Shown here in pieces: positions 2,522 through 34,282 of a DNA stretch of 34,282 nt. The position numbers and the translations under genes are program-made. Numbering within the stretch: position 1 is the stretch's first letter; each line of letters starts with the position of its first letter. The notes below the pieces were generated by a model. The model was given only the letters and a program-made list of their open reading frames with translations. It was not told the origin of the DNA and searched no databases. The DNA comes from a virus: the IMG/VR virus record IMGVR_UViG_3300045988_088004; one strand, 5' to 3'.

Positions 2522-4302
2522 TGGCGAGTGCATCTAATTCAGTAAACTTAACTTCAAACAATGGATATAAGTATACATTAACAGCTAGTTTTATCGAAAA
2601 TAGTACAGATATCGCTAATAACACTTCTAACGTAACAGTCACAGCTACCATAAAGTCAAATGGTGCAAGCTGGAGCAGTAGTTATAATTCTACGTTAATA
2701 ATTTATTGGCATGACAACCGAGAAAACTACGACAGACAAGTAGCTAGCATAAATCTAAAAAGTCTAGGAGCAAATGCTAGTGCTAACGCATCAGAAACAA
2801 TAAATGTAACACATAAAGACGACGGAACTCTATCAGGATATGCCTACGCTTCATTTAATAAAGGCGGTACTAGTGCATGGACTCCAAACAACGGAGGAGT
2901 AAGTACGAACTGGACGGCACTAACTACAATAGCCAGAGCAAGCCAACCTTCTATAAATACGTGGCCTCAAAACAGCCCAGACTTTAATATAGGTGATACA
3001 ATAACTATTCATATGAATAGAAAAAGTACAGCATTTACTCATACAGTAACACTATACTTTGGAAACTACTCATATCAAATAGCTACAGAAGTAACAAATA
3101 ACTGCACGCTGGATACTAGTGCAATAGCAAATAATCTATATCAGCAAATACCGAACGCAAGCGTAGGAGAAGGAAATATTACAGTAATAACCTATAATGG
3201 ATCTACTCAAATAGGTACGAAAAGTTGTTTATTTTATGCTCACGTAGTAAATTCTAGTCCTACATTTAATCAGGCATATTTAGACAGTAACTCAACCACG
3301 ACAGCTATTACAGGAAACAACCAGCAAATAATCAGAAACAATAGTACATTAAGAGTAAACGTCACGAACGCACAGGCAAAAAACTATGCAACTCTAAGTA
3401 GCGCTAAAGTGGTTATTAACGGACAGACTTATACAGCTTCTTTTAGTGGATCAAACGCAACTTTTAATATCGGAGTGCTAAATATTTCTGATAATATTAC
3501 AGCTGTAGTATCAGTAACAGACAGCAGAGGCATTACTACTAACAAAGATTTACCTATAACTATCTTAAACTGGGAATTACCTACGGCTATTATTACTCTA
3601 CAAAGACAGAATAACTTCTATAGTGAGACGGATATAAACGTAAATGCGGAATATTCAAGCCTAGATAATAAAAATACAATATCTATAAAAGTCCGCTATA
3701 AAAAGGTTTCGGATGCAACATATAGCAACTGGACGACACTACAGGACGACGTAAAACAGCAATTTACTTTAGATAATAATTACGAATGGAACGTCCAAGT
3801 AGTTTTAGAGGATAGGATAGGAACGACCACATATAATTTAGTGCTAAATAGAGGTATTCCGATAGCGTTCTTTGATAGACTAAAAAGAAGTCTTGGTATA
3901 AATTGTTTCCCAAAAGATACAGAAAGCCTAGAAGTAAATGATTTAAACATTTTAAATAAAATACTTGGAACTGAGTTGTATAACAATACCACAGGCTCAA
4001 ATAGTGCTATCACACTTTCCGAAAGTGCAGCTAATTTTACTTATTTGGAGATATTTTATAGAAACAACGATAATTATTATAATTCTACTAAAATATATCA
4101 GCCTAACGGAAAAATTGCATATTTAGACGCAGATTATCCGTATACAAGTGGTGAAGGCTATTCTTATGCAAAAAAGACTTCAGTACAAATATCAGGCACA
4201 AGTATTAGACCGATAAATTACGTCGAATTAACAGTAATGCCGTCAGGTGCTAACATACTAAATAAAAACAATATTTATATAACTAGAGTAGTAGGATATT
4301 AA
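2521..4302 (+). CDS. Tail fibre / receptor-binding protein (593 aa)
   Basis: ATG overlaps the upstream stop (TAATG). Long N/S/T-rich beta-type protein, last large gene of the tail module. Family assignment uncertain. Confidence 0.55.
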   Translation: MASASNSVNLTSNNGYKYTLTASFIENSTDIANNTSNVTVTATIKSNGASWSSSYNSTLIIYWHDNRENYDRQVASINLKSLGANASANASETINVTHKDDGTLSGYAYASFNKGGTSAWTPNNGGVSTNWTALTTIARASQPSINTWPQNSPDFNIGDTITIHMNRKSTAFTHTVTLYFGNYSYQIATEVTNNCTLDTSAIANNLYQQIPNASVGEGNITVITYNGSTQIGTKSCLFYAHVVNSSPTFNQAYLDSNSTTTAITGNNQQIIRNNSTLRVNVTNAQAKNYATLSSAKVVINGQTYTASFSGSNATFNIGVLNISDNITAVVSVTDSRGITTNKDLPITILNWELPTAIITLQRQNNFYSETDINVNAEYSSLDNKNTISIKVRYKKVSDATYSNWTTLQDDVKQQFTLDNNYEWNVQVVLEDRIGTTTYNLVLNRGIPIAFFDRLKRSLGINCFPKDTESLEVNDLNILNKILGTELYNNTTGSNSAITLSESAANFTYLEIFYRNNDNYYNSTKIYQPNGKIAYLDADYPYTSGEGYSYAKKTSVQISGTSIRPINYVELTVMPSGANILNKNNIYITRVVGY

Positions 4303-4700: not shown

Positions 4701-6056
4701 TTACGACCGAAAAACAAGAGTTATATTTAAGTCTTCGTCTATCGTGATATTCTTTATAACACTATTCCATAAAGCCCGCTTTTTTTCCTTTTCTAAATTG
4801 TTATAAATAGTCTTCCAGTCATTTACAAAAAACTTGTTAATATCTTTTATTTCTTTGTTAGAAGTTGTTAAGGCTTCTATTTTTTTTAATTCTTTTTCCA
4901 AGTCGTCGTATTCTATATCATAATCAGAAGCAGAGATCCGACCTTTACGAAACATATAATTTAGGTTATCAAGTTCTGTTTTAATGTCTTTTATTTGTTT
5001 TTTAAGCTTTTCTTTTTCAGGCTTCGGAAGTATTTCAACGTCTGTACGCACAGATGCAATATGCTTATTTAACAAGTCTTCTACGTTTTCTATTAAAAAC
5101 TTTTCTATCTTTTCTTCCGTTATTCCTTTTTTGAAACTACATAATTTAGTACTTTTATGTTTACCACAGACGTAGCTATAATATCTTTTTTTTCCGTCGT
5201 AGTATTTTCCAACAAAAGAAGACTTACATTCAGGACATTTAATCATACCAACAAATAAATATACATTTTTATTCTTCCTGACTTTTACATTGCCTTTTAT
5301 ATATTCCTGATTTAAAAGGTATTCTTTTTCTGTAATATAAGCTGGAGCATAATTATAATTATCTTTATATTTTCCAGTATATAAGTCACGTTTCAAGATC
5401 CGAGCATAAGTCCTATAGTCCTTTGTTAAATTGTATTTTTTGTTAATATATATGCAAGTGCTACGAATTGAACGATAAGTCGAAAAGTGATCGAAAATAT
5501 CATTTACAATAGCTTCGGTTTCTTTATCTTTGATTATTACTTTTTTTCCGTCTTTTTCACCAATTTTATAGCCAAAAGGGAGCGAGCCTGTAACGGCTTC
5601 ACCCTCACGTACTTTATACTCAAATACAGCTTTAATACGTTCGGATCCTCTATCTAATTCATGCTGGGCTAGTGACAATTTTAAATTAAATAAAAACATA
5701 CCGTTAGAAGTGGTAGTATCTACGTTTTCTTCTTTTATAGCTATCATGTCTGTATTATTCTGTTTTAATAATTGCAAAAGTTTATTAGCTTCTAACACAT
5801 TCCTAGAAAGTCTATCTATTCTGGTGAATAAAATAGCATCCAATTTAGGAAGATCATTTATCATTCTTTGCAGGTTAGGACGTTTCATGTTGGAAGCCGA
5901 ATAGCCTTCGTCTATGTATAAATCAATTAAGTTATGATTATTTTCATTACACCATTTTTCTATTTCTTCTATCTGGGCTTTGGTAGAGTATCCGAACTTT
6001 TTTTGTTCTTCATGGGATACTCTAACATAACCGCCTATTTTTAAAACTTTTTTCAA
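4701..6056 (-). CDS. int: Large serine recombinase (phage integrase)
   Basis: N-terminal resolvase catalytic domain (GGYVRVSHEEQ...DEGYSASN...IDRLSRN), then a recombinase domain and a Cys-rich zinc ribbon (CPECKS...C...C). The maximal ORF reaches 6071, but GGAGG at 6065-6069 favours the TTG start at 6056 (MKKVLKIGGY). Confidence 0.9.
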   Translation of the reverse strand: MKKVLKIGGYVRVSHEEQKKFGYSTKAQIEEIEKWCNENNHNLIDLYIDEGYSASNMKRPNLQRMINDLPKLDAILFTRIDRLSRNVLEANKLLQLLKQNNTDMIAIKEENVDTTTSNGMFLFNLKLSLAQHELDRGSERIKAVFEYKVREGEAVTGSLPFGYKIGEKDGKKVIIKDKETEAIVNDIFDHFSTYRSIRSTCIYINKKYNLTKDYRTYARILKRDLYTGKYKDNYNYAPAYITEKEYLLNQEYIKGNVKVRKNKNVYLFVGMIKCPECKSSFVGKYYDGKKRYYSYVCGKHKSTKLCSFKKGITEEKIEKFLIENVEDLLNKHIASVRTDVEILPKPEKEKLKKQIKDIKTELDNLNYMFRKGRISASDYDIEYDDLEKELKKIEALTTSNKEIKDINKFFVNDWKTIYNNLEKEKKRALWNSVIKNITIDEDLNITLVFRS

Positions 6057-6071
6057 AAAGAAAACCTCCAA

Positions 6072-15879: not shown

Positions 15880-16272
15880 ATTAGACTTTTTATGTGAGAT
15901 AATAGTAATGTGAAATAATATAAAATGGTGGCCTATGAAAGAATTCCCGTACCAATAGGGAATTCACTATCTTTAGTAGGTAGTGATACTGAATAATAAA
16001 GGAACGCAATTAGACGTATTCTAATTAAAGGTAACTCAGACGAACATATTTTATTGAACTCGAGATAACAATAAAAACAATTCTAGGCAGAGAAGTGACG
16101 AAAGATTTTATTATTTAGTATCAGTATCTATTAAAGATACTAATATAAGCACCACAAACAGGTACGAACGGTGGAAGACAGCGACAAGCTGTCTAGAGGG
16201 TATAATTTTTTTTCATATTCTTTTATGTATCCTCTAGAGAGCTTATTAGAAGACTAGAAATAGTCTTTTTTT
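15880..16272 (+). ncRNA. Candidate structured ncRNA / late-operon leader (unclassified)
   Basis: About 0.4 kb with no credible ORF in a genome otherwise packed gene-to-gene. Hairpins: gaattccc/gggaattc (15941-15965), aattaga/tctaatt (16008-16026), agacagc/gctgtct (16176-16194), tctagagggta/tatcctctaga (16192-16238). Long-range gatactga (15985-15992) pairs with tcagtatc (16121-16128). Ends at the terminator 16250-16272. Boundaries and strand are inferred. Confidence 0.35.
16250..16272 (+). terminator. Rho-independent terminator 20 nt upstream of the holin start
   Basis: The stem is aagacta/tagtctt with a GAAA loop, followed by a T run to 16272. Confidence 0.7.
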
Positions 16273-18496: not shown

Positions 18497-18700
18497 ATGA
18501 AGTTAAAAGTAGAATACCTACCTATAGACGAGATAAAACCATACGAGAATAATGCTAAGATACACACTCCAGAACAGATAGAGCAAATCAAAGCAAGTAT
18601 CCAGCAATTCGGAATGAATGATCCTATAGGGATATGGAGTAAAGAGAATATCATAGTAGAAGGGCATGGACGATTACTAGCGTGCCAAGAGTTAGGATAA
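18497..18700 (+). CDS. ParB-like nuclease N-terminal domain, 5' fragment of a frame-broken ParB-methyltransferase gene
   Basis: IDEIKPYENNAKIHTPEQIEQIKASIQQFGMNDPI...EGHGRLLACQELG then TAA. The sequence continues seamlessly in the -1 frame. Confidence 0.8.
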   Translation: MKLKVEYLPIDEIKPYENNAKIHTPEQIEQIKASIQQFGMNDPIGIWSKENIIVEGHGRLLACQELG

Positions 18701-19761
18701 AAGAGATACCAGTAATAAGACTGGACGACCTAACAGACGAGCAAAGAAAAGCCTATACGCTCGCACACAACCAATTGACAATGAATACAGGATTTGACTT
18801 AGATATTCTAAATCAGGAGCTAGCAGATATCAGCATAGATATGCAGGAGTTCGGATTTGAAGACATAAATAAAGACGATTTTAATATCGAGGAAGACGAC
18901 TTCGAGTTCAACGAAGAAGAAATACCTGAAGCCAAAGCGAAACGAGGGGAAATCTACAAATTAGGAGAACATATCCTGATGTGTGGAGATAGCACAGCTC
19001 GACAGGACGTGGAAAAACTACTAAATGGAAAAATAGCAGACTTAGTAGTTACAGATCCACCATATAACGTAGCGATTTCTAATAGTCAGGGAATGACAAT
19101 AGAAAACGATGATATGTCAGACGAGAGCTTCAGGAAATTTCTAAATAGTGCATTTGAAAACATGAGTGATAGCCTAAAAGAAGGCGGAGCGTTTTACGTT
19201 TGGTATGCTTCCAGAGAACATATAAACTTTGAATCAGCATTACTAAATAATAACCTAACAGTAAGACAACAGCTAATATGGGTAAAGAACTCGTTAGTAC
19301 TTGGTAGACAAGACTACCAGTGGAGACACGAACCATGCTTATACGGATGGAAAGACGGAGAAGGTCATTATTTCATATACGACAGGACACAAAGTACAGT
19401 AATGGAGCAAAAAGAAATCGATATAGATAAACTAAGCCCAGAAGAAAGCAAAGAATTATTAAAAAAAATATATTCAGAAATACCATCCACGATAATAAAA
19501 GAAAACAAGCCACAGAAGAATAACCTACATCCAACTATGAAACCAATAGAACTAATAGGAAAGCTAATACATAACAGCTCAGAAAAAGGACAAATAGTTC
19601 TGGATTTATTCGGTGGATCAGGAAGCACACTAATAGCCTGCGAGCAGTTAGGAAGAAAGTGCTACATGATGGAATACGATCCGATATACGTGGATGCAAT
19701 TATACAAAGATATGAAGAATTTACAGGAAAGAAAGCAGAACTAATAAGTAGGGGAGATTAA
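18682..19761 (+). CDS. DNA methyltransferase (N6A/N4C beta class, DPPY), 3' part of the ParB-MTase gene
   Basis: IKEIPVIRLDDLTDEQRKAYTLAHNQL (rest of the ParB domain), motif IV VVTDPPYNV and motif I LDLFGGSGSTLIACEQLGR. Confidence 0.85.
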   Translation: MPRVRIKEIPVIRLDDLTDEQRKAYTLAHNQLTMNTGFDLDILNQELADISIDMQEFGFEDINKDDFNIEEDDFEFNEEEIPEAKAKRGEIYKLGEHILMCGDSTARQDVEKLLNGKIADLVVTDPPYNVAISNSQGMTIENDDMSDESFRKFLNSAFENMSDSLKEGGAFYVWYASREHINFESALLNNNLTVRQQLIWVKNSLVLGRQDYQWRHEPCLYGWKDGEGHYFIYDRTQSTVMEQKEIDIDKLSPEESKELLKKIYSEIPSTIIKENKPQKNNLHPTMKPIELIGKLIHNSSEKGQIVLDLFGGSGSTLIACEQLGRKCYMMEYDPIYVDAIIQRYEEFTGKKAELISRGD

Positions 19762-19765
19762 TGAA

Positions 19766-20563
19766 ATGATAGAAAAAGTAAACCCAAGCCACCCAGATAA
19801 AGTGGCAGACAGAATAGCAGGAGCAATAGTTGACCTTGCTTATACAAAAGAAGAAAATCCAAAGGTAGCAGTAGAAGTGCTAATAGGACATGGAGATTGC
19901 AAGATTATAATAGAAACTTCTGTATATATAGAATATGAAGAAATAAATAAAATTGTTGAAAGAATAACTAACAACAAAAATTTAAATGTAGAAATAAACG
20001 AAGTAGCACAGGATGAACACTTAGCCAAAAATCAAAGTAAAGAAATAAGATGTGGAGATAATGGAATATTTAAAGGTGTACCATTAACAGGCAACGAAAA
20101 AATGATTAGCAGATTAGCAAAACAAATATATGATGAATTTCCTTATGATGGAAAATATATACTAACAGATGATAAATTTATATGTTGCCAAAGTAATGCA
20201 ACAGACCACGATTTAAAAAAACTAATAGGAGATAGTGAAGATTATATTTTTAATCCATTAGGTTATTGGACAGGTGGAACAGATGTAGATACAGGAGCGA
20301 CTAATAGAAAGTTAGGTTCAGATATGGCACAAAGTGTTACTGGTGGAGGACTTCACGGTAAAGATTTATCTAAAGCTGATGTATCAGTAAATATCTACGC
20401 ATTCTTAAAAGCTCAAAAAACAGGAGAAACAGTAGAACTATGCTGTGCAATAGGTGATGACACAATAGATGGTAAGCCTTATAGCGAAATAGTTGAAATA
20501 GCAAGAGATTATATAAACAAAGTCGGTGGCTTTGAGAAGTTCGCAGAGTGGGGATTATTTTAA
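19766..20563 (+). CDS. metK: Compact S-adenosylmethionine synthetase homologue (265 aa)
   Basis: SHPDKVADRIAGAIVD resembles MetK GHPDKIADQISDA. CGDNGIF resembles GAGDQG. GGTDVDTGATNRKLGSD resembles GGPMGDCGLTGRKIIVD. GGGLHGKDLSKADVS resembles GGGAFSGKDPSKVDRS. Confidence 0.8.
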   Translation: MIEKVNPSHPDKVADRIAGAIVDLAYTKEENPKVAVEVLIGHGDCKIIIETSVYIEYEEINKIVERITNNKNLNVEINEVAQDEHLAKNQSKEIRCGDNGIFKGVPLTGNEKMISRLAKQIYDEFPYDGKYILTDDKFICCQSNATDHDLKKLIGDSEDYIFNPLGYWTGGTDVDTGATNRKLGSDMAQSVTGGGLHGKDLSKADVSVNIYAFLKAQKTGETVELCCAIGDDTIDGKPYSEIVEIARDYINKVGGFEKFAEWGLF

Positions 20564-20606: not shown

Positions 20607-20978
20607 ATGGCAAAAATGACATTAAACGAGCAAGCCCAAGAGATAATCAGAATAGCAGAAGAAAGCGGAGTTCAGAGTAACTTCTTTTTTATAACTACAT
20701 TTAAAAGATATCAAGTTCAACTAAATATGCTAACAGAACTAGAAAAGAAGATGAAGGACGACGGGATGCTAGTTACTAAAGAATACGTAAAAGGCAGAAA
20801 GAATTTATATTCTAACCCAGCACTAAAAGAATACAATACAACAACAGACAGTGCGAACAGAACAGTATCAACACTAATGAAAATAATTAAGAACTACAAC
20901 GTGGACGACGGAGAAACAGAAGTAGAAGAAGATCCACTACTAAAAGCTATAAACGGTAGTGACGACTATGAAGAATAA
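20607..20978 (+). CDS. terS: Terminase small subunit (P27-like)
   Basis: 123 aa directly upstream of and overlapping TerL. The pattern ...FKRYQVQLNMLTELEKKM...LVTKEYVKGRKNLYSNPALKEYN is typical of P27-family TerS. Confidence 0.7.
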   Translation: MAKMTLNEQAQEIIRIAEESGVQSNFFFITTFKRYQVQLNMLTELEKKMKDDGMLVTKEYVKGRKNLYSNPALKEYNTTTDSANRTVSTLMKIIKNYNVDDGETEVEEDPLLKAINGSDDYEE

Positions 20979-22647
20979 GGCGTACGATTTTTGTAAGATA
21001 TCAGTAAATCAGGAGACTACTCCTAAATACGTAAAATTACAAATGCAGGAGTTTATAGACACAGTAGAAGACAAAGACAAAAAATATACCATAAACGAAA
21101 CTAAACTAAAACAAGTAAATAATATATTAAAGCTATTAGTAATGCCTAAAGGACTAAAAGCAGGACAGACGCTATACGAATGTACTACAGGCTATCAATG
21201 GCTTTTTTATATAGCTATACTATGTACGGTATATAGAAGCAACCCTAAAAAAAGAAGATACGAAATAGGAGTACTAGAGATATGCAGGAAGAACTTTAAA
21301 ACGTTTACGATAGCGACTATCTTTATACTACTATTCTTAACAGAGCCGAAGTTCTCTAAGTTTTTTAGTGTAGCTCCAGACGGAGCATTATCTAGAGAAG
21401 TAAGAGAAGCGATAAGCGAAATTATCAGGAGTTCGCCTTTGATATACGAGTACAAAGATAATAAAAGATTTAAGATCCTGAGAGATTATATTCTTTTCAA
21501 GCCGACGCAGGTAACATACATTCCGTTAAGTTATTCTACAAGTAGATTAGACGGAAGATTACCGAACGCCTTCATAGTAGACGAGGCAGGAGCATTACCA
21601 ACCAGCTACGCTATCGAAAGTATGAAGTCAGGACAATTAAACATACTAAATAAATTAGGCTTTATAATCAGTACTAAATATCCTACAATAGATAACCCTT
21701 TCGAAGACGAAGTAAATTACTCTAAGAAGGTACTAGACGGACTAGAGAAGGACGAGACTAGATTTAGTTTATTATACGAGCCAGATAAGACGAAGGACTG
21801 GGAAACGGACGATATGATCCTAAAGCAAAGCAACCCTGTGGCATTAGAGATACCAGAGATATGGAACGACCTAGTAAAAAAAAGAGCGTACGCAATAGCC
21901 GTAGAGAGTGCGAGGGAAAACTTCGTAACAAAGCATTGCAATATTATATATCAGGGAGCAGGAACAGAAACCTATATAGACGTAAAAGACGTACAGGAGT
22001 GCAAACAAGCTAAAATAAACTGGAACGGTAGAGTAGTATACGTAGGACTAGACCTATCAGAGAGTAACGATAATACCAGCGTAAGCATGGTTACAGTAGA
22101 CGACAATAACAATATACTAGCTGACAGCTTTGCCTTTATTCCAGAGGGAAGAATAGAAGAAAAAACAGTAACAGAGAAGGTAAATTACAGGGAACTAATA
22201 AGAACAGGAAAAGTAATAGCCTGCGGAGACAAAGTAATAGACTACGCAGTAGTAGAAGACTTTATATTAAATCTAGAGACTAAATACGGAGTACAGATCC
22301 AAGCTATAGGATATGACCGCTGGAATGCACTTAGTACAGCTCAGAAACTAGAGCGAGCAGGATATAACCTAGTAGAGATCAGACAGCACTCTAGCGTATT
22401 ACACCCACCTACAAAGTTACTAAAAGAAAAGATACTAGCTAAAGAGTTCCAATACGAAAATAATACGCTACTAGAAATCAACTTCCAGAACGCAAGATGC
22501 ACGTATGACACAAATAAAAATATGTACGTACACAAAAAGAAAAGCACAGGAAAAGTAGATATGGTAGTTTCAATGCTAAACGCAATATATCTACTACAGC
22601 AAGACGTATTTTTAAATCAGATGGACTTTGCTATTCAGGTATTTTAG
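20968..22647 (+). CDS. terL: Terminase large subunit
   Basis: Terminase_1-type ATPase (RKNFKT Walker A-like, FIVDEAG Walker B) and nuclease half (VYVGLDLSESNDNTSVSMV...GYDRWN). The maximal ORF starts at GTG 20959. Confidence 0.9.
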   Translation: MKNKAYDFCKISVNQETTPKYVKLQMQEFIDTVEDKDKKYTINETKLKQVNNILKLLVMPKGLKAGQTLYECTTGYQWLFYIAILCTVYRSNPKKRRYEIGVLEICRKNFKTFTIATIFILLFLTEPKFSKFFSVAPDGALSREVREAISEIIRSSPLIYEYKDNKRFKILRDYILFKPTQVTYIPLSYSTSRLDGRLPNAFIVDEAGALPTSYAIESMKSGQLNILNKLGFIISTKYPTIDNPFEDEVNYSKKVLDGLEKDETRFSLLYEPDKTKDWETDDMILKQSNPVALEIPEIWNDLVKKRAYAIAVESARENFVTKHCNIIYQGAGTETYIDVKDVQECKQAKINWNGRVVYVGLDLSESNDNTSVSMVTVDDNNNILADSFAFIPEGRIEEKTVTEKVNYRELIRTGKVIACGDKVIDYAVVEDFILNLETKYGVQIQAIGYDRWNALSTAQKLERAGYNLVEIRQHSSVLHPPTKLLKEKILAKEFQYENNTLLEINFQNARCTYDTNKNMYVHKKKSTGKVDMVVSMLNAIYLLQQDVFLNQMDFAIQVF

Positions 22648-22656
22648 GAGGGTAAT

Positions 22657-23727
22657 ATGATAAAACACGATAATATATTTTATGTGAGAAATATCCATGC
22701 AATAGGCGGAGTAGAAACGTACGTATACGAGCTAGCTAAAAAGTACAAAGACTACGATATAGCAGTAGTATGTAAGACTATAGCTCCAGAACAACTAAAA
22801 AGACTAAAAAAGTTCTGTAGAGTTTATATCCATAAAAACGAACAAATAGAATGTAAATTACTAATAACTAACTGGGATACGTCTATCATTAAATACGTAA
22901 ATAAAGAAGCTAAAGTATATACAGGACTACATACAGACTATAGTAATTCAACAGAGATACTAGGACTTCCTAAAGACGATCCGAGAATAACATATATCGG
23001 AATAACAGAAGACAGTAAAAAGAAGTTCGAAGATATAACAGGAATAAAAAGGACTATTCTATGTAGAAACCCTTTAGAATTGGAGGAAGATCCGCCAGTA
23101 CTAACACTAATGAGTGCAACTAGACTAAGCTCCATAAAAGGCGGAGATAGAATGCTAGCAATAGCAAACGAGCTAGATAGACAGGGTATAGATTATATAT
23201 GGCTACTATATACTACAGACGAATATCAGAGCAACCCAGTATGGAAAAATAAAAACGTAATACACATGAACAATAGATTAGATTTAGGTAAGTTTATGAG
23301 AAAAGCAGACTGGATAATTCAGCCGTCAATATGCGAAGGAGATAGTTACACACTAAAAGAAGCACTATATCGAGGAGTACCAGTAGTAGTATGCGAACTA
23401 CCATACTTTAAAGAGATAGGAATAAAAGACGGAGAAAATGCTTTATTTTTAAAAGAAGACAGTAGCAACGTAGAAGAAGTAGTAAAGAAAATGAAAAAAC
23501 CGCTAAAGTTCAAATTCGAGCCAGTAAAAGATGGATACGATAAACTACTAGCAAAAGGTAAAAGCATATATCAGCAGGAATTAAAAACAATGGTAGAAGT
23601 ACAATGTATAAACAAATACCACGACTTAGAACTAAAGAGACTAATAACTCCAGAAGATAAACCATACAAAGTAAATAAAATAAGAGCAGAAGAACTAGAA
23701 GAATTAAATCTAGCAGTAAGGAGGTAA
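22657..23727 (+). CDS. GT4-family (GT-B, retaining) glycosyltransferase with a C-terminal ~45-aa domain duplicated in the next ORF
   Basis: RBS taggaggg. IGGVETYVYELAK N-terminal half. The C-terminal half carries E-x7-E: PSICEGDSYTLKEALYRGVPVVVCELPYF...GENALF. Confidence 0.8.
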   Translation: MIKHDNIFYVRNIHAIGGVETYVYELAKKYKDYDIAVVCKTIAPEQLKRLKKFCRVYIHKNEQIECKLLITNWDTSIIKYVNKEAKVYTGLHTDYSNSTEILGLPKDDPRITYIGITEDSKKKFEDITGIKRTILCRNPLELEEDPPVLTLMSATRLSSIKGGDRMLAIANELDRQGIDYIWLLYTTDEYQSNPVWKNKNVIHMNNRLDLGKFMRKADWIIQPSICEGDSYTLKEALYRGVPVVVCELPYFKEIGIKDGENALFLKEDSSNVEEVVKKMKKPLKFKFEPVKDGYDKLLAKGKSIYQQELKTMVEVQCINKYHDLELKRLITPEDKPYKVNKIRAEELEELNLAVRR

Positions 23728-23732
23728 GAGAA

Positions 23733-23933
23733 ATGGTAAAAGTACAATGCATACTAGACTACAACGATCTACAACTAAAGAGACTAGTAAAAGTAGGAGA
23801 AGAATTAGAAGTAGCAAAAGCTAGAGCAGAAGTTCTAGTAGAAAAAGAACTAGTAAAAGTAGTAGAAGTAATTCCAGAAGAAGAAAAAACACCAGCTAAA
23901 AAAACTACAGCAAAAAAAACAAATAAAAAATAA
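23733..23933 (+). CDS. Small protein (66 aa) with K-rich tail; paralog of the glycosyltransferase C-terminus
   Basis: MVKVQCILDYNDLQLKRLV compares with MVEVQCINKYHDLELKRLI at 23590. RBS aggaggtaagagaaATG. Confidence 0.6.
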   Translation: MVKVQCILDYNDLQLKRLVKVGEELEVAKARAEVLVEKELVKVVEVIPEEEKTPAKKTTAKKTNKK

Positions 23934-23966: not shown

Positions 23967-25277
23967 ATGGGACTATTCGATAGATTTAGAAAAGAAGAAA
24001 AAAGAGAAGAAACACCAGCTCCAGTTAATCAGGAAATGGTAGCAAACGACGTATTATTAAAAGCATTATTAAATAGCGAGCCTATTACCAGAGAACAGGC
24101 ATTAACATTACCTGCAGTATCAGGAGCGGTAGATTTCATAAGCGGAATGATAGCGTCAATGCCAGTAAAACTATACAAGTATAAAGACGGTAAAGTAGAA
24201 AGTAAGGACGACGATCCTAGAGTACTACTACTAAACGGAGACACAGGAGACACTCTAGATGCATTCCAGATGAAAAAAGCAATGGTAGAAGACTATCTAC
24301 TAGGAAAAGGTGGATACTCATATATCAGGAGAAATAGAAACGACGTAACTGGACTATTCTACGTAAAAGATATATACGTAAGTGCTATACCTAATTTCAA
24401 ACCAATATATAAAGACTTTTATCTAATAGTAGAAGGCCAAACTTACCAAAAGTACGAGTTTATAAAGTTACTTCGTAATACAAAAGACGGAGCAACTGGA
24501 GTAGGACTAACAGAAGAAGTAGGAACAGCACTAGAAACAGCATTTAATACGCTACTATATCAACTAAATATAGTTAAATCTGGAGGAAATAAAAAAGGCT
24601 TTCTAAAATCACAAAGAAAGCTAGGGCAGGACGAAATAAACGTATTAAAGCAAGCATGGAACAACCTATATGCTAATAGTACAGAAAACGTAGTAGTTTT
24701 AAATAATGGACTAGAGTTTCAAGAAGCTAGTAATAGCTCAGTAGAAATGCAACTAAACGAAAGCAAGAAGACGCTACAGGCCGAAATAAATAATATATTT
24801 CATATATACCCTAATGATTTTTATAGGACATTTAAAGAAGGAATATATCCAATAGTAAAAGCATTCACTACAGCTTTAAACAAAGACTTATTACTAGAAA
24901 AAGAAAAGAATAAAATGTTCTTCGAGTTCGACGTAAAAGAGATCCTAAAAGCAAACCCTAAAGAGCAAGCAGAAATATATAAACTATATAAAGAAATAGG
25001 AATGCTAACTATAAACGAACTAAGAAGAATGGATAACAGAAATATGATAGAAGGAATGGACGTATTAAATGTAGGATTAGGAGCAGTACTATACGACGCA
25101 AATACGCACCAATTCTATACACCTAATACAGATACAACAGCTAATATTACAGATACACCAGAAGCACAGCCAGAAAGTGCAATAGACGAAAACGCAGAAG
25201 CACAAATACAAAAATTGTTATTAGATAAAGAACTAGATACAGAGTTTGAAGAAAGCGGAAATAGTTCTGACGCATAG
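23967..25277 (+). CDS. Portal protein (HK97 family)
   Basis: 436 aa with RBS aaaggagg. Positioned before the protease and capsid genes. Motifs ...ALTLPAVSGAVDFISGMIASMPVKLY... and ...GGNKKGFLK... are typical of Phage_portal. Confidence 0.9.
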   Translation: MGLFDRFRKEEKREETPAPVNQEMVANDVLLKALLNSEPITREQALTLPAVSGAVDFISGMIASMPVKLYKYKDGKVESKDDDPRVLLLNGDTGDTLDAFQMKKAMVEDYLLGKGGYSYIRRNRNDVTGLFYVKDIYVSAIPNFKPIYKDFYLIVEGQTYQKYEFIKLLRNTKDGATGVGLTEEVGTALETAFNTLLYQLNIVKSGGNKKGFLKSQRKLGQDEINVLKQAWNNLYANSTENVVVLNNGLEFQEASNSSVEMQLNESKKTLQAEINNIFHIYPNDFYRTFKEGIYPIVKAFTTALNKDLLLEKEKNKMFFEFDVKEILKANPKEQAEIYKLYKEIGMLTINELRRMDNRNMIEGMDVLNVGLGAVLYDANTHQFYTPNTDTTANITDTPEAQPESAIDENAEAQIQKLLLDKELDTEFEESGNSSDA

Positions 25278-26002: not shown

Positions 26003-27181
26003 ATGGAAAAAGAACTAAACGAAAGAAAGAATGATCTTATTACTAGAGCAGAAGAAACTCTAAATAAGGCAAAAGAAGAAAAAAGAGAGCTAACAGAAGC
26101 AGAAGCAGAAGAATTAGCAGAAATCAGAGATAATGTAAGACGCATTATGAAAACATTAGAATTGAAAGGAGAGTTTGACAAAATGGAAGGAAAAGCATTA
26201 GAAAAAGAAGGGCTTCCAAAAGACGAAGCTAAAACAGAAGTAGAAATCGAAAAAGAAGAAAGAGCATTAAACGAAGAAAAAGCATTCGCTGATTATATTA
26301 GAGGAGTAGTAACTAACGAAAGAGCTACTAATATGACTTTAACCGATAATGGAGCTGTAATTCCTACTACTATTGCTAATCGTATTATTCGTAAAGTATA
26401 TGATATTTCACCTATTTTACAAAAATCAACTAAATACAATGTAAAAGGAACACTAGAATTACCATACTACGACGAAAGTACACAAGCTATTACAGTAGCA
26501 TTCGCTACAGAGTTCCAAGAACTAGAAAGCAATATCGGAAAATTAGATAGTATTACTTTAACAGGATACTTAGCAGGAGCTTTATCTTTAGTTTCAAGAT
26601 CACTAATTAACAATTCTCAATTCGATATCGTAGCATTCGTAGTAGACGTAATGGCTTATGATATTTCTAGATTTATTGAAGATACATTACTAAACGGTAA
26701 AGGATCTGTAACAGGTTTATCTAACTTAACTAATGTTAAGACTACAGCATCAGCTACAGAAGTAACAGCAGACGAACTAATCTTAGCACAAGGACAAGTA
26801 AAAGACGTTTATCAAAATAACGCTATCTGGATCATGTCACCAGCTACAAGAGATGCTATCCGTAGCTTAAAAGACAAAATGGGAAGATATTTATTACAAG
26901 ACGATATCAGCTTACCATTTGGAAAATCTTTATTAGGAAAACCTGTATATGTATCTGATAATATGAACGATATCACAGCAGGAAAAACAGCAATTTACTA
27001 TGGAGATATGTCAGGACTTGCTACTAAGTTCTCAGAAGAATTAAGCATCCAAGTATTAAGAGAAAAATATGCTACAATGCACGCTGTAGGAGTAGTAGGC
27101 TGGATCGAGTTCGATAGTAAAGTAGAAAACGCTCAAAAGATCGTAGCAGTAAAAATGGCTGGAACAACTCCAAGTGCATAA
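26003..27181 (+). CDS. Major capsid protein, HK97 fold with N-terminal delta (scaffold) domain
   Basis: 392 aa with a coiled-coil N-terminus of about 100 aa, then ...TNMTLTDNGAVIPTTIANRII...GYLAGALSLVSRSLINNS.... Follows the protease. Ends ...AGTTPSA. Confidence 0.9.
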   Translation: MEKELNERKNDLITRAEETLNKAKEEKRELTEAEAEELAEIRDNVRRIMKTLELKGEFDKMEGKALEKEGLPKDEAKTEVEIEKEERALNEEKAFADYIRGVVTNERATNMTLTDNGAVIPTTIANRIIRKVYDISPILQKSTKYNVKGTLELPYYDESTQAITVAFATEFQELESNIGKLDSITLTGYLAGALSLVSRSLINNSQFDIVAFVVDVMAYDISRFIEDTLLNGKGSVTGLSNLTNVKTTASATEVTADELILAQGQVKDVYQNNAIWIMSPATRDAIRSLKDKMGRYLLQDDISLPFGKSLLGKPVYVSDNMNDITAGKTAIYYGDMSGLATKFSEELSIQVLREKYATMHAVGVVGWIEFDSKVENAQKIVAVKMAGTTPSA

Positions 27182-28323: not shown

Positions 28324-28672
28324 CGAACTACAAACAATATTCGCAAACTTCACAGTAGATGGACAAGCTATACCTGTATCATTTATGAGATATACAGGTA
28401 AGGCTACAACCTATATAACCTATCAGGAAATACAGGACGATACGTCCTTCAGTGCAGACGACGAACTACAAGCCTACGTAAGATACTACGACTTTGATAT
28501 ATATAGTAAAGGTAATTATCTAACAATAGTAGAAAGTGTAAAAGAAATATTAAAAGCAAACGACTGGAGATATCAGCCTAGTATGACTTCGCAGGACTTA
28601 TACGAAGACGATACAGGTTACTATCATAAGACGTTATGCTTTGCAAAAATAGAGGAGGAGCAAAATGGCTAA
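28316..28672 (+). CDS. Tail terminator-like protein
   Basis: 118 aa, overlapping both neighbours, immediately before the major tail gene. Assigned by position only. Confidence 0.45.
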   Translation: MNNELQTIFANFTVDGQAIPVSFMRYTGKATTYITYQEIQDDTSFSADDELQAYVRYYDFDIYSKGNYLTIVESVKEILKANDWRYQPSMTSQDLYEDDTGYYHKTLCFAKIEEEQNG

Positions 28673-29225
28673 AATAGGATTACAAAACTTTTTATATGGA
28701 GTACTTACAGAAGCCAGCGACGGTAAAGCTACATACGGACAAGTGCTAAAACCTGGAAAAGCAGTAAGCTGTAGTGTAAGTATTTCAAGTAACGACGCTA
28801 AGCTATACGCAGACGACGGCTTAGCAGAAAGCGATACTTCATTCCAAAGTGGAACAGTATCAATTGAAGTAGATAACGCAGATTTAACTACACAAGCTAC
28901 ATTACTAGGACATACAATATCAGGCGAGGAAATGGTAAGAAAAGCTACTGATACAGCTCCATACGTAGCATTAGGACGTATCGTAACTAAGATGGTAGCA
29001 GGAAATTATCAGTATAAAGTAGAGTTCTTACCAAAAGTAAAATTCTCAGAGCCTAGCCAAGAAGATACAACTAAAGGCGAAAGCGTAGAGTTCGGAACTA
29101 CTACATTAGAAGGAATTATATCTACGCTAGCAGACGGTACATGGAGCAAAACTCAAACATTCGAAACAATAACAGAAGCAAGAACATACTTAAACGGTTT
29201 ATTCGAATCAACTCCAAGTGCATAA
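28665..29225 (+). CDS. Major tail (tube) protein, phi13-like
   Basis: The N-terminus MAKIGLQNFLYGVLTEASDGKATYG...GKAVSCSVSISSNDAKLYADDG matches the phi13-family major tail pattern. Ends ...FESTPSA. Confidence 0.85.
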   Translation: MAKIGLQNFLYGVLTEASDGKATYGQVLKPGKAVSCSVSISSNDAKLYADDGLAESDTSFQSGTVSIEVDNADLTTQATLLGHTISGEEMVRKATDTAPYVALGRIVTKMVAGNYQYKVEFLPKVKFSEPSQEDTTKGESVEFGTTTLEGIISTLADGTWSKTQTFETITEARTYLNGLFESTPSA

Positions 29226-29230
29226 TAACA

Positions 29231-29260
29231 GGGTAGGCGAATAAACCTACCCCTTTTTTT
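29231..29260 (+). terminator. Rho-independent terminator/attenuator after the major tail gene
   Basis: The stem is gggtagg/cctaccc with an 8-nt loop, followed by 7 T. Confidence 0.8.
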
Positions 29261-29934: not shown

Positions 29935-30939
29935 ATGGCTAGCTTTGGAGGATCAATAAAACTAACAGGCGCAGACGAGTATAAGAACGCATTAAAGCAA
30001 ATATCACAGAGCTTACGAGAAACTGGATCAGAACTAACGGCCGTAGCTAGTAGATATGATAAGAACGATAGCTCATTATCTACATTAAAGGCAAAAACTA
30101 CAGAAATGACTAGCGTATTATCAAAGCAAAATCAAGCCTACCAGCAATTAAAGAGTGCATACGATACTTTTAGTGCTAAAGTAAGCCAGCAGGCACAGGC
30201 ACACGATAAACTAGTTCAAACATACGAAAAAGAAAAGCAAGAATTAGAGAATATCCGTAAAGCATCTGGAGAAAGTTCGCAAGCCTTTCAAAACCAGCAG
30301 GCTAAAGTAAACGATCTAGCTAGTGCAGTAGCTAAAAGTTCTCAAAATATGAACGAAAACCAGATAGCACTAAGCAAAATGAAAACACAGCTAAACCAAG
30401 CCGAGACAACAGTAAATAAAACAACTAAAGAAATAGAGGAATTAGGTAATGCAACCGAAGAAAGCGGAGAAAAAGCCAAAAAAGGTGGCGAAGGATATAC
30501 AGTATTTAAGAATATTCTAGCTAATTTAGGTACTCAGGCTATAAACAGCTGTATAAATGGACTAAAGTCTTTAGGTGGAGCATTTATAAACGTAGGAAAG
30601 CAAGCCCTAGCAAGCTACGGAGAGTTCGAACAGCTAAAAGGCGGAGTAGAAACACTATTTAAAGATAGTGCAGATACAATACTAGAGTATTCACAAAACG
30701 CATATATGACCGCTGGAATGAGTGCTAACGAATATATGAGTACCGTAACTAGTTTTTCAGCATCTTTAATACAGTCTTTAGGCGGAGACACGGAAAAAGC
30801 CGTAGAATACTCAGATAGAGCTATTACAGATATGTCAGATAACGCTAATAAAATGGGTACTTCTATGGAAATGATCCAAAATGCTTATCAGGGCTTTGCA
30901 AAATCTAATTACACAATGCTGGATAACTTAAAATTGGGT
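29935..30939 (+). CDS. Tape measure protein, exon 1
   Basis: Coiled-coil N-terminus ending ...NYTMLDNLKLG. The apparent stop at 30940 is the first intron codon. Confidence 0.85.
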
Positions 30940-31203
30940 TAACAAAATAGCTCAAGTAAAACCTCGTGAAAACGGTGAAACTCTCACGTAGACAATACCG
31001 TGCGAAGCCTAAAATTACAAAATATTGACAATTCAAAAAAGTAATTTTAGGAACGTGTAACGACTATCCCGAAAGGGAGTACACTCAAGCGAGTGGAAGT
31101 GCGAGGAACTCGAAAGAGTTAAGAGATAGTCTACTCTATATGGCGACATATAGCAGTTCATAAGAGAACGGTACGAAATTAGCGACTTCGTGTGAATGCA
31201 AGG
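30940..31203 (+). ncRNA. Group I intron (264 nt, no ORF)
   Basis: Removing it joins ...MLDNLKLG to YGGTKGEMERLIADANK in frame. Exon 1 ends in U and the intron ends in G. Candidate helices: P1 ttgggt (30934-30939) with gctcaa (30950-30955, U.G at the splice site); P3 cctcg/cgagg (30962-30966/31102-31106); P6 11-bp stem (31008-31018/31041-31051); P7 gacta/tagtc (31062-31066/31127-31131); P7.1 tccc-gaaa-ggga; P7.2 cactc-aagc-gagtg; P8 aactc-gaaa-gagtt; J8/7 aagaga; P9 ctatatg-gcga-catatag. Confidence 0.8.
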
Positions 31204-32640
31204 TATGGTGGTACTAAAGGCGAAATGGAACGACTAATAGCAGACGCAAATAAAGTAAAAGAAGCTAACGGAGAAATGGCTAACCTATCTATAGACAGTT
31301 TCGCAGACGTAACAGAAGCAATACATATTATCCAAACAGAAATGGGTATAACAGGTACTACTTCTAAAGAAGCAGGAAGAACTATTCAAGGATCTGTAAA
31401 AGCCATGAAGTCAGCATGGAGCAACCTACTAACAAAACTAGGTGATGGATCAGCAAATATAGAAGATTTAGTACGTAATTTAATGCTTACTATCGCAGGA
31501 GACGGAACAGAAAATAACTTAGGAGTATTAGGAAACGTAATGCCAGCCGTACAAAGAATATCAGAGGGTATAATGAATGCTTTACCGCAATTATTAAACG
31601 GTATTATTTCAGTATTACCTCAATTCTTAGAAGCTGGAGTAAATATAATTAACGGCCTAGTAACAGGTATTCAACAAAATATGCCAGCTATAATGTCAGC
31701 TACTATGCAGATCATAAATACCCTACTAACTACTATCATAAATAACCTACCTAAAATACTACAAATGGGAATACAAGTAATAGTATCACTAGTACAGGGA
31801 ATAGCTCAGCAACTACCTACACTAATACCGCAAATGGTAGAGACAGTAATAACAATAGTAGAAACTTTAATAGATAACATAGATTTAATAATTGACGCAG
31901 GAATACAGCTAATTATAGGCCTAGCCGAAGGCTTAATAGAAGCACTACCACAGCTGATAGATAAAATACCTATCATAATAGATAAATTAGTAGAAGCCAT
32001 TACGAATAACCTACCTAAGATAATCGAAATGGGTATAACTTTAATAGTTAAACTAGCCGAAGGTTTAATAAAGGCTATACCGCAACTAGTAAGCAAGATA
32101 CCGCAGATTATAAGCTCATTAGTAAATGGAATAGCAAGCTATTACTCTAAAATCTTTAGTGTAGGTGGAGAATTACTAGGAAAAGTAAAAGATGGTATCA
32201 TGAGCGGAATATCAGGAATGCTAGATGTAGGTAAAAATCTAGTTCAGGGATTATGGAATGGTATCGATAACGCTAAAGACTGGGTACTAGATAAAATTAA
32301 AGGTTTCGGGGAGTCTATAGTAGATGGAATTAAATCGTTCTTCGGGATCAACTCACCATCAACTTTATTTAGAGACCAAGTAGGTAAAAACCTAGCACTA
32401 GGTGTAGGAGAAGGTTTTTCAGACGAAATGGCTAACGTAACAAACGAGATGCAGAACGCTATTCCTAACAGCTTTGATACAGACGTAAACGTAGGAACTA
32501 CAACTACAGGAATGAATAATAATTACTTTAATATAGTAGACGCATTTAAAGAAGCACTATCAGAAATGAAAATAGAATTAGACGACGAAGTAGCAGGACG
32601 CTTCGTAGAGAATACAATAACAAACGCTATATATAACTAG
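31204..32640 (+). CDS. Tape measure protein, exon 2
   Basis: Starts YGGTKGEMERL.... Has a long hydrophobic LPxL/LPKI repeat region typical of tape measure proteins. The track ORF's GTG start at 31192 lies inside the intron. Confidence 0.85.
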   Translation, partial: YGGTKGEMERLIADANKVKEANGEMANLSIDSFADVTEAIHIIQTEMGITGTTSKEAGRTIQGSVKAMKSAWSNLLTKLGDGSANIEDLVRNLMLTIAGDGTENNLGVLGNVMPAVQRISEGIMNALPQLLNGIISVLPQFLEAGVNIINGLVTGIQQNMPAIMSATMQIINTLLTTIINNLPKILQMGIQVIVSLVQGIAQQLPTLIPQMVETVITIVETLIDNIDLIIDAGIQLIIGLAEGLIEALPQLIDKIPIIIDKLVEAITNNLPKIIEMGITLIVKLAEGLIKAIPQLVSKIPQIISSLVNGIASYYSKIFSVGGELLGKVKDGIMSGISGMLDVGKNLVQGLWNGIDNAKDWVLDKIKGFGESIVDGIKSFFGINSPSTLFRDQVGKNLALGVGEGFSDEMANVTNEMQNAIPNSFDTDVNVGTTTTGMNNNYFNIVDAFKEALSEMKIELDDEVAGRFVENTITNAIYN

Positions 32641-33379: not shown

Positions 33380-33733
33380 ATGAATAACAATAATATGTTT
33401 ATGGTACGAGGTGACACTTTTCGTTTTAGTGTAGAAATAGAAAACCTACAAGAAGACTTAACTAGTGCTTACTTTTCGTGCAAAAAGAACTATGACGACG
33501 TAGAATATATATTCCAAAAGTCATTAGGTGACGGAATAACAAAAAAACAAACTACAGAAAAAAGTAAAATATACGAAGTAGTAGTAGCTCCAGAAGATAC
33601 AGAAAACGTAGAATGCGGTAACTATTTTTATGACTTACAAATAGCCGTAAACGGTGACATATATACACCACTTAACGCTATTCTAAAAATAGAAAAAGAC
33701 GTAACAATAAATAGCGTTACGCCTTCGGCTTAG
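33380..33733 (+). CDS. Small beta-sandwich (Ig/BppU-N-like) virion protein ending in TPSA
   Basis: RGDTFRFSVEIE...YFYDLQIAVNGDIYTPLNAILKIEKDVT pattern. RBS aaggagg. The C-terminus is SVTPSA. Confidence 0.5.
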   Translation: MNNNNMFMVRGDTFRFSVEIENLQEDLTSAYFSCKKNYDDVEYIFQKSLGDGITKKQTTEKSKIYEVVVAPEDTENVECGNYFYDLQIAVNGDIYTPLNAILKIEKDVTINSVTPSA

Positions 33734-33744
33734 GAGGTGAAAAT

Positions 33745-34282
33745 ATGAATTGTAATTACAAAGTAAATATAAAAGATATACAAAATAAATATAAGTTTAA
33801 TATATTTGCTATGGGTGGATATAATGATAGCGACCTAAGAAAAATGATAGAAAGCGTATATTATGCACTACCTAGAGTAAACGGATCAGGAACAAGCGTT
33901 ACTTTAACTGATACGGCTTTTAGTTATATGAAGAATAAATTATATGCTACTGATATAAGCCAAGAAGGAGAGCCAACAATAGATGCACCACAAACAATAC
34001 ATACTATTAGTGGAGATAACGAAGTAGTAGTACGTGGGAAAAATTTAATACCGTTTACTAATCAAGATTTTACTTTAAATGGGTTAAGATATTATGTTGC
34101 TAATGGAAGCTTATATGTAGACGGCACAAGTCATGGAGAAGTATACTCAACAAATGCTAGTTTTAAAAATAATTTTAACTTTACATTACCAGCAGGAACA
34201 TATACTTTACAAAGAGATAATAATATTGCTACTTATCTTGACAACAAAGCAACAGGAACTCATTTAGTAACAAATAGTGGTA
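33745..34282 (+). CDS. Tail fibre / receptor-binding-like protein, 5' part of the wrap-around gene (continues at base 56)
   Basis: RBS taggaggtg precedes ATG 33745. The frame is open to the window end and continuous with 1-807 through the 55-nt overlap. Confidence 0.6.
   Translation, partial: MNCNYKVNIKDIQNKYKFNIFAMGGYNDSDLRKMIESVYYALPRVNGSGTSVTLTDTAFSYMKNKLYATDISQEGEPTIDAPQTIHTISGDNEVVVRGKNLIPFTNQDFTLNGLRYYVANGSLYVDGTSHGEVYSTNASFKNNFNFTLPAGTYTLQRDNNIATYLDNKATGTHLVTNSG

Follow-up and report, generated by a model that had tools for sequence, protein, structure and literature searches.

The window analysed here, that is, the whole stretch of DNA of IMG/VR virus record IMGVR_UViG_3300045988_088004 (34,282 bp), carries a gene for a glycosyltransferase (GT) among its late genes, and three of its proteins, including the major capsid protein and the major tail (tube) protein, end in the same four residues, T-P-S-A. 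The GT gene (22657-23727, plus strand; 356 amino acids (aa), ATG start, Pfam Glycos_transf_1) occupies an insertion slot whose upstream edge is the gene for the large terminase TerL (20959-22647, plus strand; Pfam TerL_ATPase and TerL_nuclease) and whose downstream edge is the portal gene (23967-25277, plus strand; Pfam Phage_portal, 4.7e-44). It shares the slot with an open reading frame (ORF) of 66 aa (23733-23933, plus strand). The intergenic gaps are 9 nucleotides (nt) between TerL and the GT gene, 5 nt between the GT gene and the 66-aa ORF, and 33 nt between the 66-aa ORF and the portal gene. AGGAGG Shine-Dalgarno sites are found 5' of the GT gene and of the 66-aa ORF, the latter site lying inside the end of the GT gene. 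On the plus strand, no terminator-like site was found from position 16000 to the end of the major tail gene, and the only one is a hairpin (29231-29252) that follows the major tail gene; the GT gene would therefore be transcribed together with the head genes. The guanine-plus-cytosine (GC) content in 1-kb intervals is 0.33-0.36, equal to that of the neighbouring genes. As read from the sequence, the GT gene is transcribed with TerL and portal and coupled to them in translation. A preliminary description of this DNA had reported the same tight late string of TerL (ending at 22647), GT, 66-aa ORF and portal (starting at 23967). It had also held that TerL normally stands directly before portal, which agrees with the insert-free relatives, where TerL abuts portal at about 20 distinct loci with gaps of 12-350 nt.

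The assignment of the 356-aa ORF to the GT-B/GT4 glycosyltransferases, which had been proposed from hallmarks including an E-x7-E motif together with a suggestion to check the fold by structure search, is confirmed by profile searches and by the predicted structure. The ORF scored above the cut-off with two Pfam families (PF00534 Glycos_transf_1, 33.3 bits, cut-off 26.4; PF13692 Glyco_trans_1_4, 31.3 bits, cut-off 27) and matched phrog_2170 'glycosyltransferase' (8e-12) in PHROG. In the motif, CEGDSYTLKE (E227-x7-E235), E227 is invariant among 35 homologues and E235 is at least 90% conserved. The AlphaFold (AF2) model (35-homologue alignment) has a mean predicted local distance difference test (pLDDT) score of 93.8 and consists of alternating beta and alpha elements. 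Foldseek found 307 matches to this model in the PDB at E <= 1e-3, and the top ones were all GT-B/GT4 enzymes (HepE, TarM, BshA, MshA, PimA, WaaG, GtfA and SdgB; E 1e-9 to 1e-7), with template modelling (TM) scores of only about 0.3; GtfA (5e9t) and SdgB (7vfn) stand among many equally good matches. A profile search of PDB sequences gave a single match, Gtf1 of Streptococcus parasanguinis (4pqg, E 1.6e-3), which covered the C-terminal Rossmann domain only. The protein is laid out as a GT-B/GT4 catalytic body (aa 1 to about 305) followed by a small C-terminal beta-rich domain. The best explanation for these features is a soluble, late-expressed GT4, predicted to be of the retaining type and to use a nucleotide-sugar donor.

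Relatives of the GT numbered 547 at E <= 1e-3 in a word-indexed search and 774 clusters at 50% identity in an exhaustive search, 126 of these clusters at E <= 1e-30, and 219 IMG/VR contigs encode a relative. The loci of the relatives were gathered with the GT alignment as the query; the single-protein query gave one viral locus and no genome loci. Large contigs (>100 kb; loci L055, L057, L064, L074 and L080) were excluded because of a GT frame interrupted under genetic code 11. In L053, L055, L057, L064, L069 and L074, several of them on contigs of >100 kb, an in-frame stop under this code occurs after about 180 GT codons while the tblastn match runs on, which could reflect stop-codon reassignment or pseudogenes.

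The small C-terminal domain of the GT (23587-23727, aa ~311-356) is a paralogue of the 66-aa ORF (BLASTP, 53% identity over 38 aa). It was modelled as a separate beta-beta-beta-beta-alpha-beta unit, and its residues R343 and L347 are invariant in the homologue alignment. The 66-aa ORF has a weak match to DUF7210 and matches to phrog_2616 and others, all of unknown function; it consists of a DUF7210-like fold (aa 1-46, AF2 pLDDT ~85) and a disordered Lys/Thr-rich tail, EEKTPAKKTTAKKTNKK. The best fold match was the Bacillus subtilis prophage protein YqbF (probability 0.95, TM 0.59, E 0.25), which is not significant, and no match in cultured phages was obtained by tblastn with the 66-aa ORF. Most GT homologues have the catalytic body, a beta-rich domain of about 40 residues, a linker and a Lys-rich tail in one polypeptide. 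In the window, the GT stops at the end of the small domain, and the separate 66-aa ORF holds another copy of this domain together with the Lys/Thr-rich tail. In one GT homologue (P0072, alignment columns ~470-517), a segment with KELKKLKKADLIEKAHEYGVEIIDDTLTKDQIIELIQ after the small domain replaces the Lys-rich tail, and by eye it resembles a helix-extended-helix motif (Rho_N/SAP-like), like the C-terminus of YqbF.

The shared T-P-S-A tails, also noted in the preliminary description, are those of the major capsid protein of the HK97 type (26003-27181, plus strand; Pfam Phage_capsid, 2.5e-43), which ends in ..KMAGTTPSA, of the major tail protein (28665-29225, plus strand; phrog_88 major tail protein, 6.5e-35), which ends in ..LFESTPSA, and of a 117-aa protein encoded among the tail-tip genes (33380-33733, plus strand; phrog_1084, function unknown), which ends in ..NSVTPSA. 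When the window is translated in all six frames, TPSA is found four times, and three of the occurrences are these protein C-termini (27167-27178, 29211-29222 and 33719-33730, respectively). We refer below to the C-terminal GTTPSA of the capsid (27161-27178, plus strand) and ESTPSA of the tail tube (29205-29222, plus strand) as tags; the penultimate Ser of the capsid tag, S391, is nearly invariant in the capsid alignment. The last ~6 residues of the capsid protein are an extension that is missing from relatives without a cassette of glycosylation-related genes (glyco genes). The last five codons (TPSA and stop) are identical in DNA between the major tail gene and the capsid gene, whereas the 117-aa protein gene uses four different synonymous codons (ACG CCT TCG GCT versus ACT CCA AGT GCA); the identity is therefore at the peptide level, which points to selection on the peptide. 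The tag of the 117-aa protein is found only in the window lineage, and homologues in L023 and L031 lack it; this protein is a candidate third acceptor.

Tags and cassettes in related loci

To compare the C-terminal residues with the gene content, we fetched loci around the GT relatives and, independently, around the capsid relatives. Counts for the HK97-type module were made after duplicate removal and evaluated by the Fisher test; related loci were treated as independent in all counts. In the HK97-type module of the window, the capsid and tube proteins end in the same Ser-X dipeptide in all 16 loci with glyco genes and in 2 of the 21 loci without them (p = 1.2e-8, kinship ignored). The capsid extension in the cassette loci is 5-7 residues long, and the two proteins share their last two residues, Ser and one more, as in the capsid/tube pairs PSA/PSA, PSH/PSH, PSI/PSI, ASV/TSV, PSA/VSA, ASL/ASL, ISG/ISG, PSL/VSL and PSV/VSV. 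The dipeptide varies among genomes (SA, SH, SI, SV, SL and SG) and matches within each genome. The conserved feature is a penultimate Ser with a small or hydrophobic last residue rather than TPSA as such. When the last tag residue was mapped to GT clade or cassette type, no correspondence was evident.

At loci in which TerL abuts portal, the capsid protein ends in ..KMA or ..MASA, and the tube ends are unrelated. The closest cassette-less capsid relatives of the window, L091 (89%) and L086 (88%), have a TerL-portal gap of 15 nt and lack the capsid extension, whereas more distant cassette-bearing relatives (41-81% capsid identity) carry the tag, and therefore the tag follows the cassette and not the capsid phylogeny. 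Eight tagged loci have no homologue of the window GT, and the same slot holds other enzymes: GT2, GT8, a GT1+GT2 fusion, NTP_transf_3 (MobA-like nucleotidyltransferases), CTP_transf_like or a methyltransferase. Where the slot holds non-glyco genes (L140, L141 and L128; by eye HicB-type antitoxin and anti-repressor), the capsids are untagged. The DUF7210-like module is the one element common to all cassette types, and in most relatives it forms, as a fusion, the C-terminal part of the last cassette enzyme (GT4, GT8 or NTP-transferases). We rejected the idea that this module is strictly part of the cassette, since it is present without enzymes in L174, L202, L203, L205, L207 and L211. At these loci, a small ORF (67-84 aa) lies 5' of the scaffold gene with no enzyme gene, the capsid is untagged, and the tube ends in ..TFTPSL or ..TFTPTASL.

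An SPP1-like module (Terminase_3, SPP1_portal, capsid phrog_544) contains GT homologues 63-69% identical to that of the window, and its minor-capsid and scaffold genes flank them. Here the capsid ends in ..SVSL and similar sequences, and the presumed tube protein, identified from gene order alone, in ..TASL. An annotation-free screen on the last three residues had overlooked such pairs, which share only two, and it was rerun with the last two. In a survey built around this capsid family, a penultimate Ser is found in both proteins at 22/23 SPP1-like loci with enzymes and at 1/11 loci without (p = 9e-7, again ignoring kinship), and the two proteins agree in their last two residues at 19/23 and 1/11, respectively (p = 7e-5). 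SPP1-like capsids without the cassette end in ..VVLAKFKK or ..VVLAKFTA and are six residues shorter. Note that two or three paralogous ORFs by the GT gene in L165 (11169-13797) and L174 (5018-6870) share an N-terminal (D/Q)GVWRT(I/V)GGRR(I/V)FI and have no significant Pfam or PHROG match. In a module of the P22-portal type, a 72%-identical GT is encoded upstream of TerL and the capsid (phrog_422) ends in ..HYTSAPSA; the capsids of five relatives (80-85% identity), which have no GT in the contig stretch fetched, end in ..HYSAV or ..HYSTV. The preliminary description had pointed to tails without any GT, or the reverse, as something to look for in relatives; in our survey the tag and the glyco genes went together in the HK97-type and SPP1-like modules at the frequencies given above, and in the third lineage alike.

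Among cultured phages, the nearest counterpart is the rumen Butyrivibrio phage Arawn, which encodes a GT that is 30% identical to that of the window and has the same architecture of GT4 and small domain. Its capsid ends in ..KKIASV and its tube in ..EKVTSA. An ORF of 78 aa right after the Arawn capsid gene ends in ..LSGLGLVEKV, like the small module (L248, 3945-5144, 5168-5404 and 7008-7565; L001, 19968-21047).

Proposed mechanism and rival explanations

We consider it probable that the GT O-glycosylates the C-terminal Ser tags of the capsid and tube proteins and, in the window phage, of the 117-aa protein. The enzyme would attach a sugar from a nucleotide-sugar donor to the penultimate Ser, and perhaps to the neighbouring Thr, of an acceptor formed by the 5-7-residue C-terminal extension ..T-P-S-A-COOH, and every capsid and tube subunit would display the sugar on the virion surface. 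The C-termini of HK97-fold capsids and siphophage tubes point outward, as known from the C-terminal display on T7 and P22 and from the Ig-like domains at the C-termini of lambda gpV and T5 pb6. The constant part of the system would be a tag ending in Ser and a small or hydrophobic residue. The variable part would be a swappable cassette in the head-gene block with GT4, GT2 or GT8 genes, genes for sugar-nucleotide or CDP-alcohol synthesis, or a methyltransferase gene, and different phages therefore probably display different glycans. What the sequences show is the fold, the gene context and the joint occurrence and variation of tag and cassette; the role of Ser as acceptor, the donor sugar and the timing of the modification are inferred. 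As to the benefit, our guess would be shielding from proteases or antibodies, or adhesion. The earlier proposal that the GT is co-expressed with the virion proteins and modifies them draws its support only from comparative genomics, namely from the co-occurrence of tag and cassette.

Several observations weigh against this proposal. The tube protein of L091 keeps ..GSAPSH, an end of the PSH type, at a locus without a cassette, and its capsid ends in ..QMKSA; L091 gives the impression of a mosaic or of a locus that lost its cassette recently. The capsid/tube ends of L137, L132 and L152 are ..ASE/..ASE, ..DSE/..ESE or ..SES/..VES, with TerL abutting portal and no glyco gene in the part of the contig seen; these ends may be a different type of tag, or the cassette may lie elsewhere on the contig. 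At 4 of 23 SPP1-type loci, capsid and tube do not share their last residue. L196 is tagged, with no glyco gene in the 8 kb upstream; for L196, as for L091, L137, L132 and L152, only a part of the contig was available. The GT homologue of Arawn is encoded in the replication module, beside SSB. The statistics were calculated without phylogeny correction, and many loci come from few metagenomes. The enzymes of the glycosylated mycobacteriophages discussed below (GT2 with a TylF-like methyltransferase, and GT25) are not homologous to the GT4 of the window. Finally, the fold of the GT does not reveal its acceptor, because some of its best structural neighbours act on teichoic acid, lipids or small molecules.

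The GT might instead glycosylate a polymer of the host envelope (wall teichoic acid, lipoteichoic acid or capsule), blocking superinfection or the sticking of progeny to debris, with the tags unrelated. The teichoic-acid glycosyltransferase TarM is among its structural neighbours, and alternative cassettes contain CTP_transf_like and NTP_transf_3 genes, which are typical of CDP-glycerol, CDP-ribitol or CDP-choline pathways. However, such a role leaves unexplained why the Ser tag is gained or lost with the cassette in three unrelated module families. Moreover, the GT gene lies in the late operon without a promoter or terminator of its own, and the enzyme is therefore not expected to be made in the lysogen. 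The globular, high-confidence GT model also shows no evident membrane segment or secretion signal; we regard the explanation as unlikely. The tags might also be docking sites for the DUF7210/YqbF-like protein, a decoration or adaptor, with the sugar going to its Thr/Lys-rich tail or to another target. The occurrence of this module in all cassette types, fused to GT4, GT8 or nucleotidyltransferases, its Thr-rich tail predicted to be disordered, and the prophage origin of its best, although not significant, fold match YqbF would suit this idea. Yet the Lys/Thr-rich tail is missing from the cassette-bearing L003, L004, L034, L045, L047 and L062, and the loci named above that carry the module without enzymes (L202, L203, L205, L207, L211 and L174) lack the capsid tag. 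In addition, the sole universally conserved residue of the tag is a hydroxyl amino acid, and the proven tags of mycobacteriophages likewise end in Ser, which leaves docking with a small chance of being right.

A by-product of shared ancestry and of mosaic recombination of linked genes could produce an association of tag and cassette without any functional tie. The counts above do take related loci as independent, and the capsid gene lies only 2-4 kb from the cassette, close enough for the two to be inherited together. Against this stand the tube gene, which is 5 kb further off and encodes the same last residues, the variation of a tag that stays matched within genomes, the recurrence of the association with non-homologous capsids (phrog_10, phrog_544 and phrog_422) and non-homologous enzymes, and the absence of the extension from the closest cassette-less capsid relatives; we find mere co-inheritance very unlikely. 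Many phage GT-B enzymes glucosylate DNA, as the alpha- and beta-glucosyltransferases of T4 do, and the GT might accordingly modify phage DNA, glucosylating hydroxymethylated bases against restriction. The Arawn homologue adjoins SSB and a gene annotated 'CMP glycosidase', and genes for a DNA methyltransferase and a SAM-synthetase-like protein (SAM, S-adenosylmethionine) lie 3 kb upstream in the window. However, the scanned ORFs of the window include no hydroxymethylase, TET/5mYOX or TET-associated glycosyltransferase (TAGT) gene, the GT ORF has no TAGT match, and the methyltransferase of the window is of the N6/N4 type. L165 carries a TAGT-type DNA glycosyltransferase separately from its GT4, and the Lactobacillus delbrueckii phage LL-Ku, a cultured relative, has TAGT and neither GT4 nor tags. 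As DNA modification offers no account of the tags either, we judge it extremely improbable.

Glycosylation of the Ser tags by the cassette enzymes, if true, has consequences beyond this phage. Virion glycosylation is probably common in gut and rumen phages, as suggested by the 219 IMG/VR contigs and the 774 clusters at 50% identity, and it would have evolved or spread across unrelated head modules. The matched Ser-X C-terminal tag of capsid and tube would then be a signature for annotating viromes. Surface glycans could influence how phages survive in guts rich in proteases and antibodies, how they adhere to mucus or fibre, and how the immune system recognizes therapeutic phages, and a six-residue tag with one 356-aa enzyme would be a simple tool to show sugars on capsids. 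More tentatively, and with considerable doubt on our side, at least three unrelated capsid lineages of gut and rumen phages may share a portable system. It would consist of a transferable C-terminal sequon on the capsid and tube subunits, with Ser and one small or hydrophobic residue before the carboxyl end, interchangeable cassettes that read this sequon, some of which would attach teichoic-acid-like or methylated sugars, and a DUF7210/YqbF-like adaptor that brings GT4, GT2 or GT8 to the tag. In that case, phage surface glycans would be a widespread and rapidly diversifying trait, and the minimal pair of tag and enzyme could serve in the glyco-engineering of phage particles.

Other features of the phage genome

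The window is a complete circularly permuted contig, since a 429-aa ORF spans its ends (33746-34282 joined to 1-~753), and the same contig is present in an ENA metagenome assembly (scaffold NIEL14-1_SAMEA2042114). With a GC content of ~32%, the genome looks like that of a temperate siphophage. Tail-tip genes (818-4302) are followed by a region with a serine recombinase gene (4701-6071, minus strand) and a repressor gene, then by replication genes, holin and endolysin genes, and genes for HNH and GIY-YIG nucleases. A gene for a protein with ParB_N and an N6/N4 DNA methyltransferase (18682-19761, plus strand) is directly followed by that of a 265-aa protein with the N-terminal domain of SAM synthetase only (19766-20563, plus strand; PF00438; phrog_1569, function unknown), which lies just 5' of the TerS gene, itself upstream of TerL. 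TAGT (PF20691) genes are located just upstream of the terminase genes in LL-Ku (L246, 90-938) and in L165 (1-115); the TAGT of LL-Ku is annotated 'beta-glucosyl-HMC-alpha-glucosyltransferase', and the ParB_N-methyltransferase gene is at the corresponding position of the window.

Head-tail genes lie between the capsid and major tail genes, and the latter is followed by the tape-measure gene and then by Dit. The tape-measure gene (29935-32640) is interrupted and appears as two ORFs (29935-30942 and 31192-32640). The insert (30930-31153, plus strand) matches Rfam Intron_gpI (RF00028) with 57 bits, above the gathering score of 50 (E 5.6e-14), so that this structural gene probably contains a group I intron; a gathering scan of the whole window did not pick it up. 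After splicing, the exon junction would read ..MLDNLKLG|YGGTKGEM....

Among cultured phages, the capsids closest to that of the window are those of L. delbrueckii phages (60%) and of a Flavonifractor phage (54%). These nearest cultured relatives, together with a holin of the Dp-1 type, make a Firmicute the probable host. A scan of a genome collection gave only three contigs of metagenome-assembled genomes with inconsistent taxonomic labels, which were not used for the host assignment. No near-identical DNA was found among GenBank phages, and the GT/tag arrangement of the window is absent from the cultured phages of the August 2025 collection.

Comparison with known glycosylation systems

To our knowledge, mycobacteriophages are the only phages whose particles have been demonstrated to be glycosylated. 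The 2023 mycobacteriophage study of Freeman et al. (Cell Host Microbe 31:1216) reportedly described the evidence of virion glycosylation elsewhere as scarce. Our search of the literature accessible to us found no report of virion glycosylation for Firmicute, gut or rumen phages. According to papers citing this study, the capsid and tail-tube subunits of the mycobacteriophages Che8, Corndog and Myrna bear C-terminal glycans (PMC12363180, PMC12619734, PMC10877033), and Che8 gp110 and Corndog gp38 are required glycosyltransferases (PMC12363180; PMC12619734). In the GenBank sequences, the Che8 capsid ends in ..NKTGS and its tube in ..YSDGS, and the Corndog capsid ends in ..PLVGS and gp49, its tube by gene order only, in ..IKGDS. 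Corndog gp35-38 (a TylF-like methyltransferase, an unassigned ORF, a GT2-like protein and a GT25) are encoded between the portal gp34 and the protease gp39. The mycobacteriophage systems and that of the window have in common phage-encoded GTs, a similar Ser-containing tag on both proteins of one phage and cassettes that may include a methyltransferase, and Corndog, like the window, has its cassette inside the head-gene block. Both the matched Ser tag and the placement of the cassette therefore have a precedent.

The two kinds of system also differ. We rejected homology of the window GT to the Che8 enzymes (gp108-110), since hhalign of the GT alignment against Che8 gp108 gave a probability of 0.4%. 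The Ser is terminal in Che8 and Corndog, whereas in window-type phages A, V, L, I, H or G comes after it. The window-type cassettes have a DUF7210-like module with them, the mycobacteriophage hosts are Actinobacteria whereas the host of the window phage is probably a Firmicute, and the mycobacteriophage glycans are proven whereas those of the window phage are predicted.

Firmicutes have soluble cytoplasmic Ser-O-GlcNAc transferases of their own, Gtf1/GtfA for serine-rich-repeat adhesins and SdgA/SdgB for the SD-repeat proteins of Staphylococcus aureus, which modify Ser of folded or unfolded protein before export or assembly; GtfA requires its partner GtfB. GtfA and SdgB, among many equally good Foldseek matches of the window GT, have the GT-B/GT4 fold, and Gtf1 matches it in the C-terminal Rossmann domain; these enzymes have about 500 aa and act on long Ser-rich repeats, whereas the window GT has 356 aa and would act on a single short tag, and its model has no inserted domain. 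An inserted beta-domain is a feature of the GtfA/Gtf1- and SdgB-type structures. In the O-glycosylation islands of flagellin in Clostridia and Listeria (for example Clostridioides difficile CD0240-0244 and Listeria GmaR), soluble GTs modify Ser/Thr of a repeated subunit before its assembly, and the cassettes are variable, with GT2, nucleotidyl- or phosphotransferase and methyltransferase genes. This mix of genes resembles the alternative cassettes in L088, L094 and L097, although the flagellin islands are bacterial loci and their targets are internal, surface-exposed Ser/Thr residues of flagellin. YqbF of the B. subtilis skin prophage (PDB 2hjq) is comparable to the 66-aa module in being a small prophage protein and its best fold match, although the match lacks statistical significance. 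The YqbF gene presumably lies in the head-gene block, adjoining the capsid gene. Taken together, these comparisons support the view that the system of the window would be a variant of phage virion glycosylation, with enzymes and a tag that differ from those of the mycobacteriophages.

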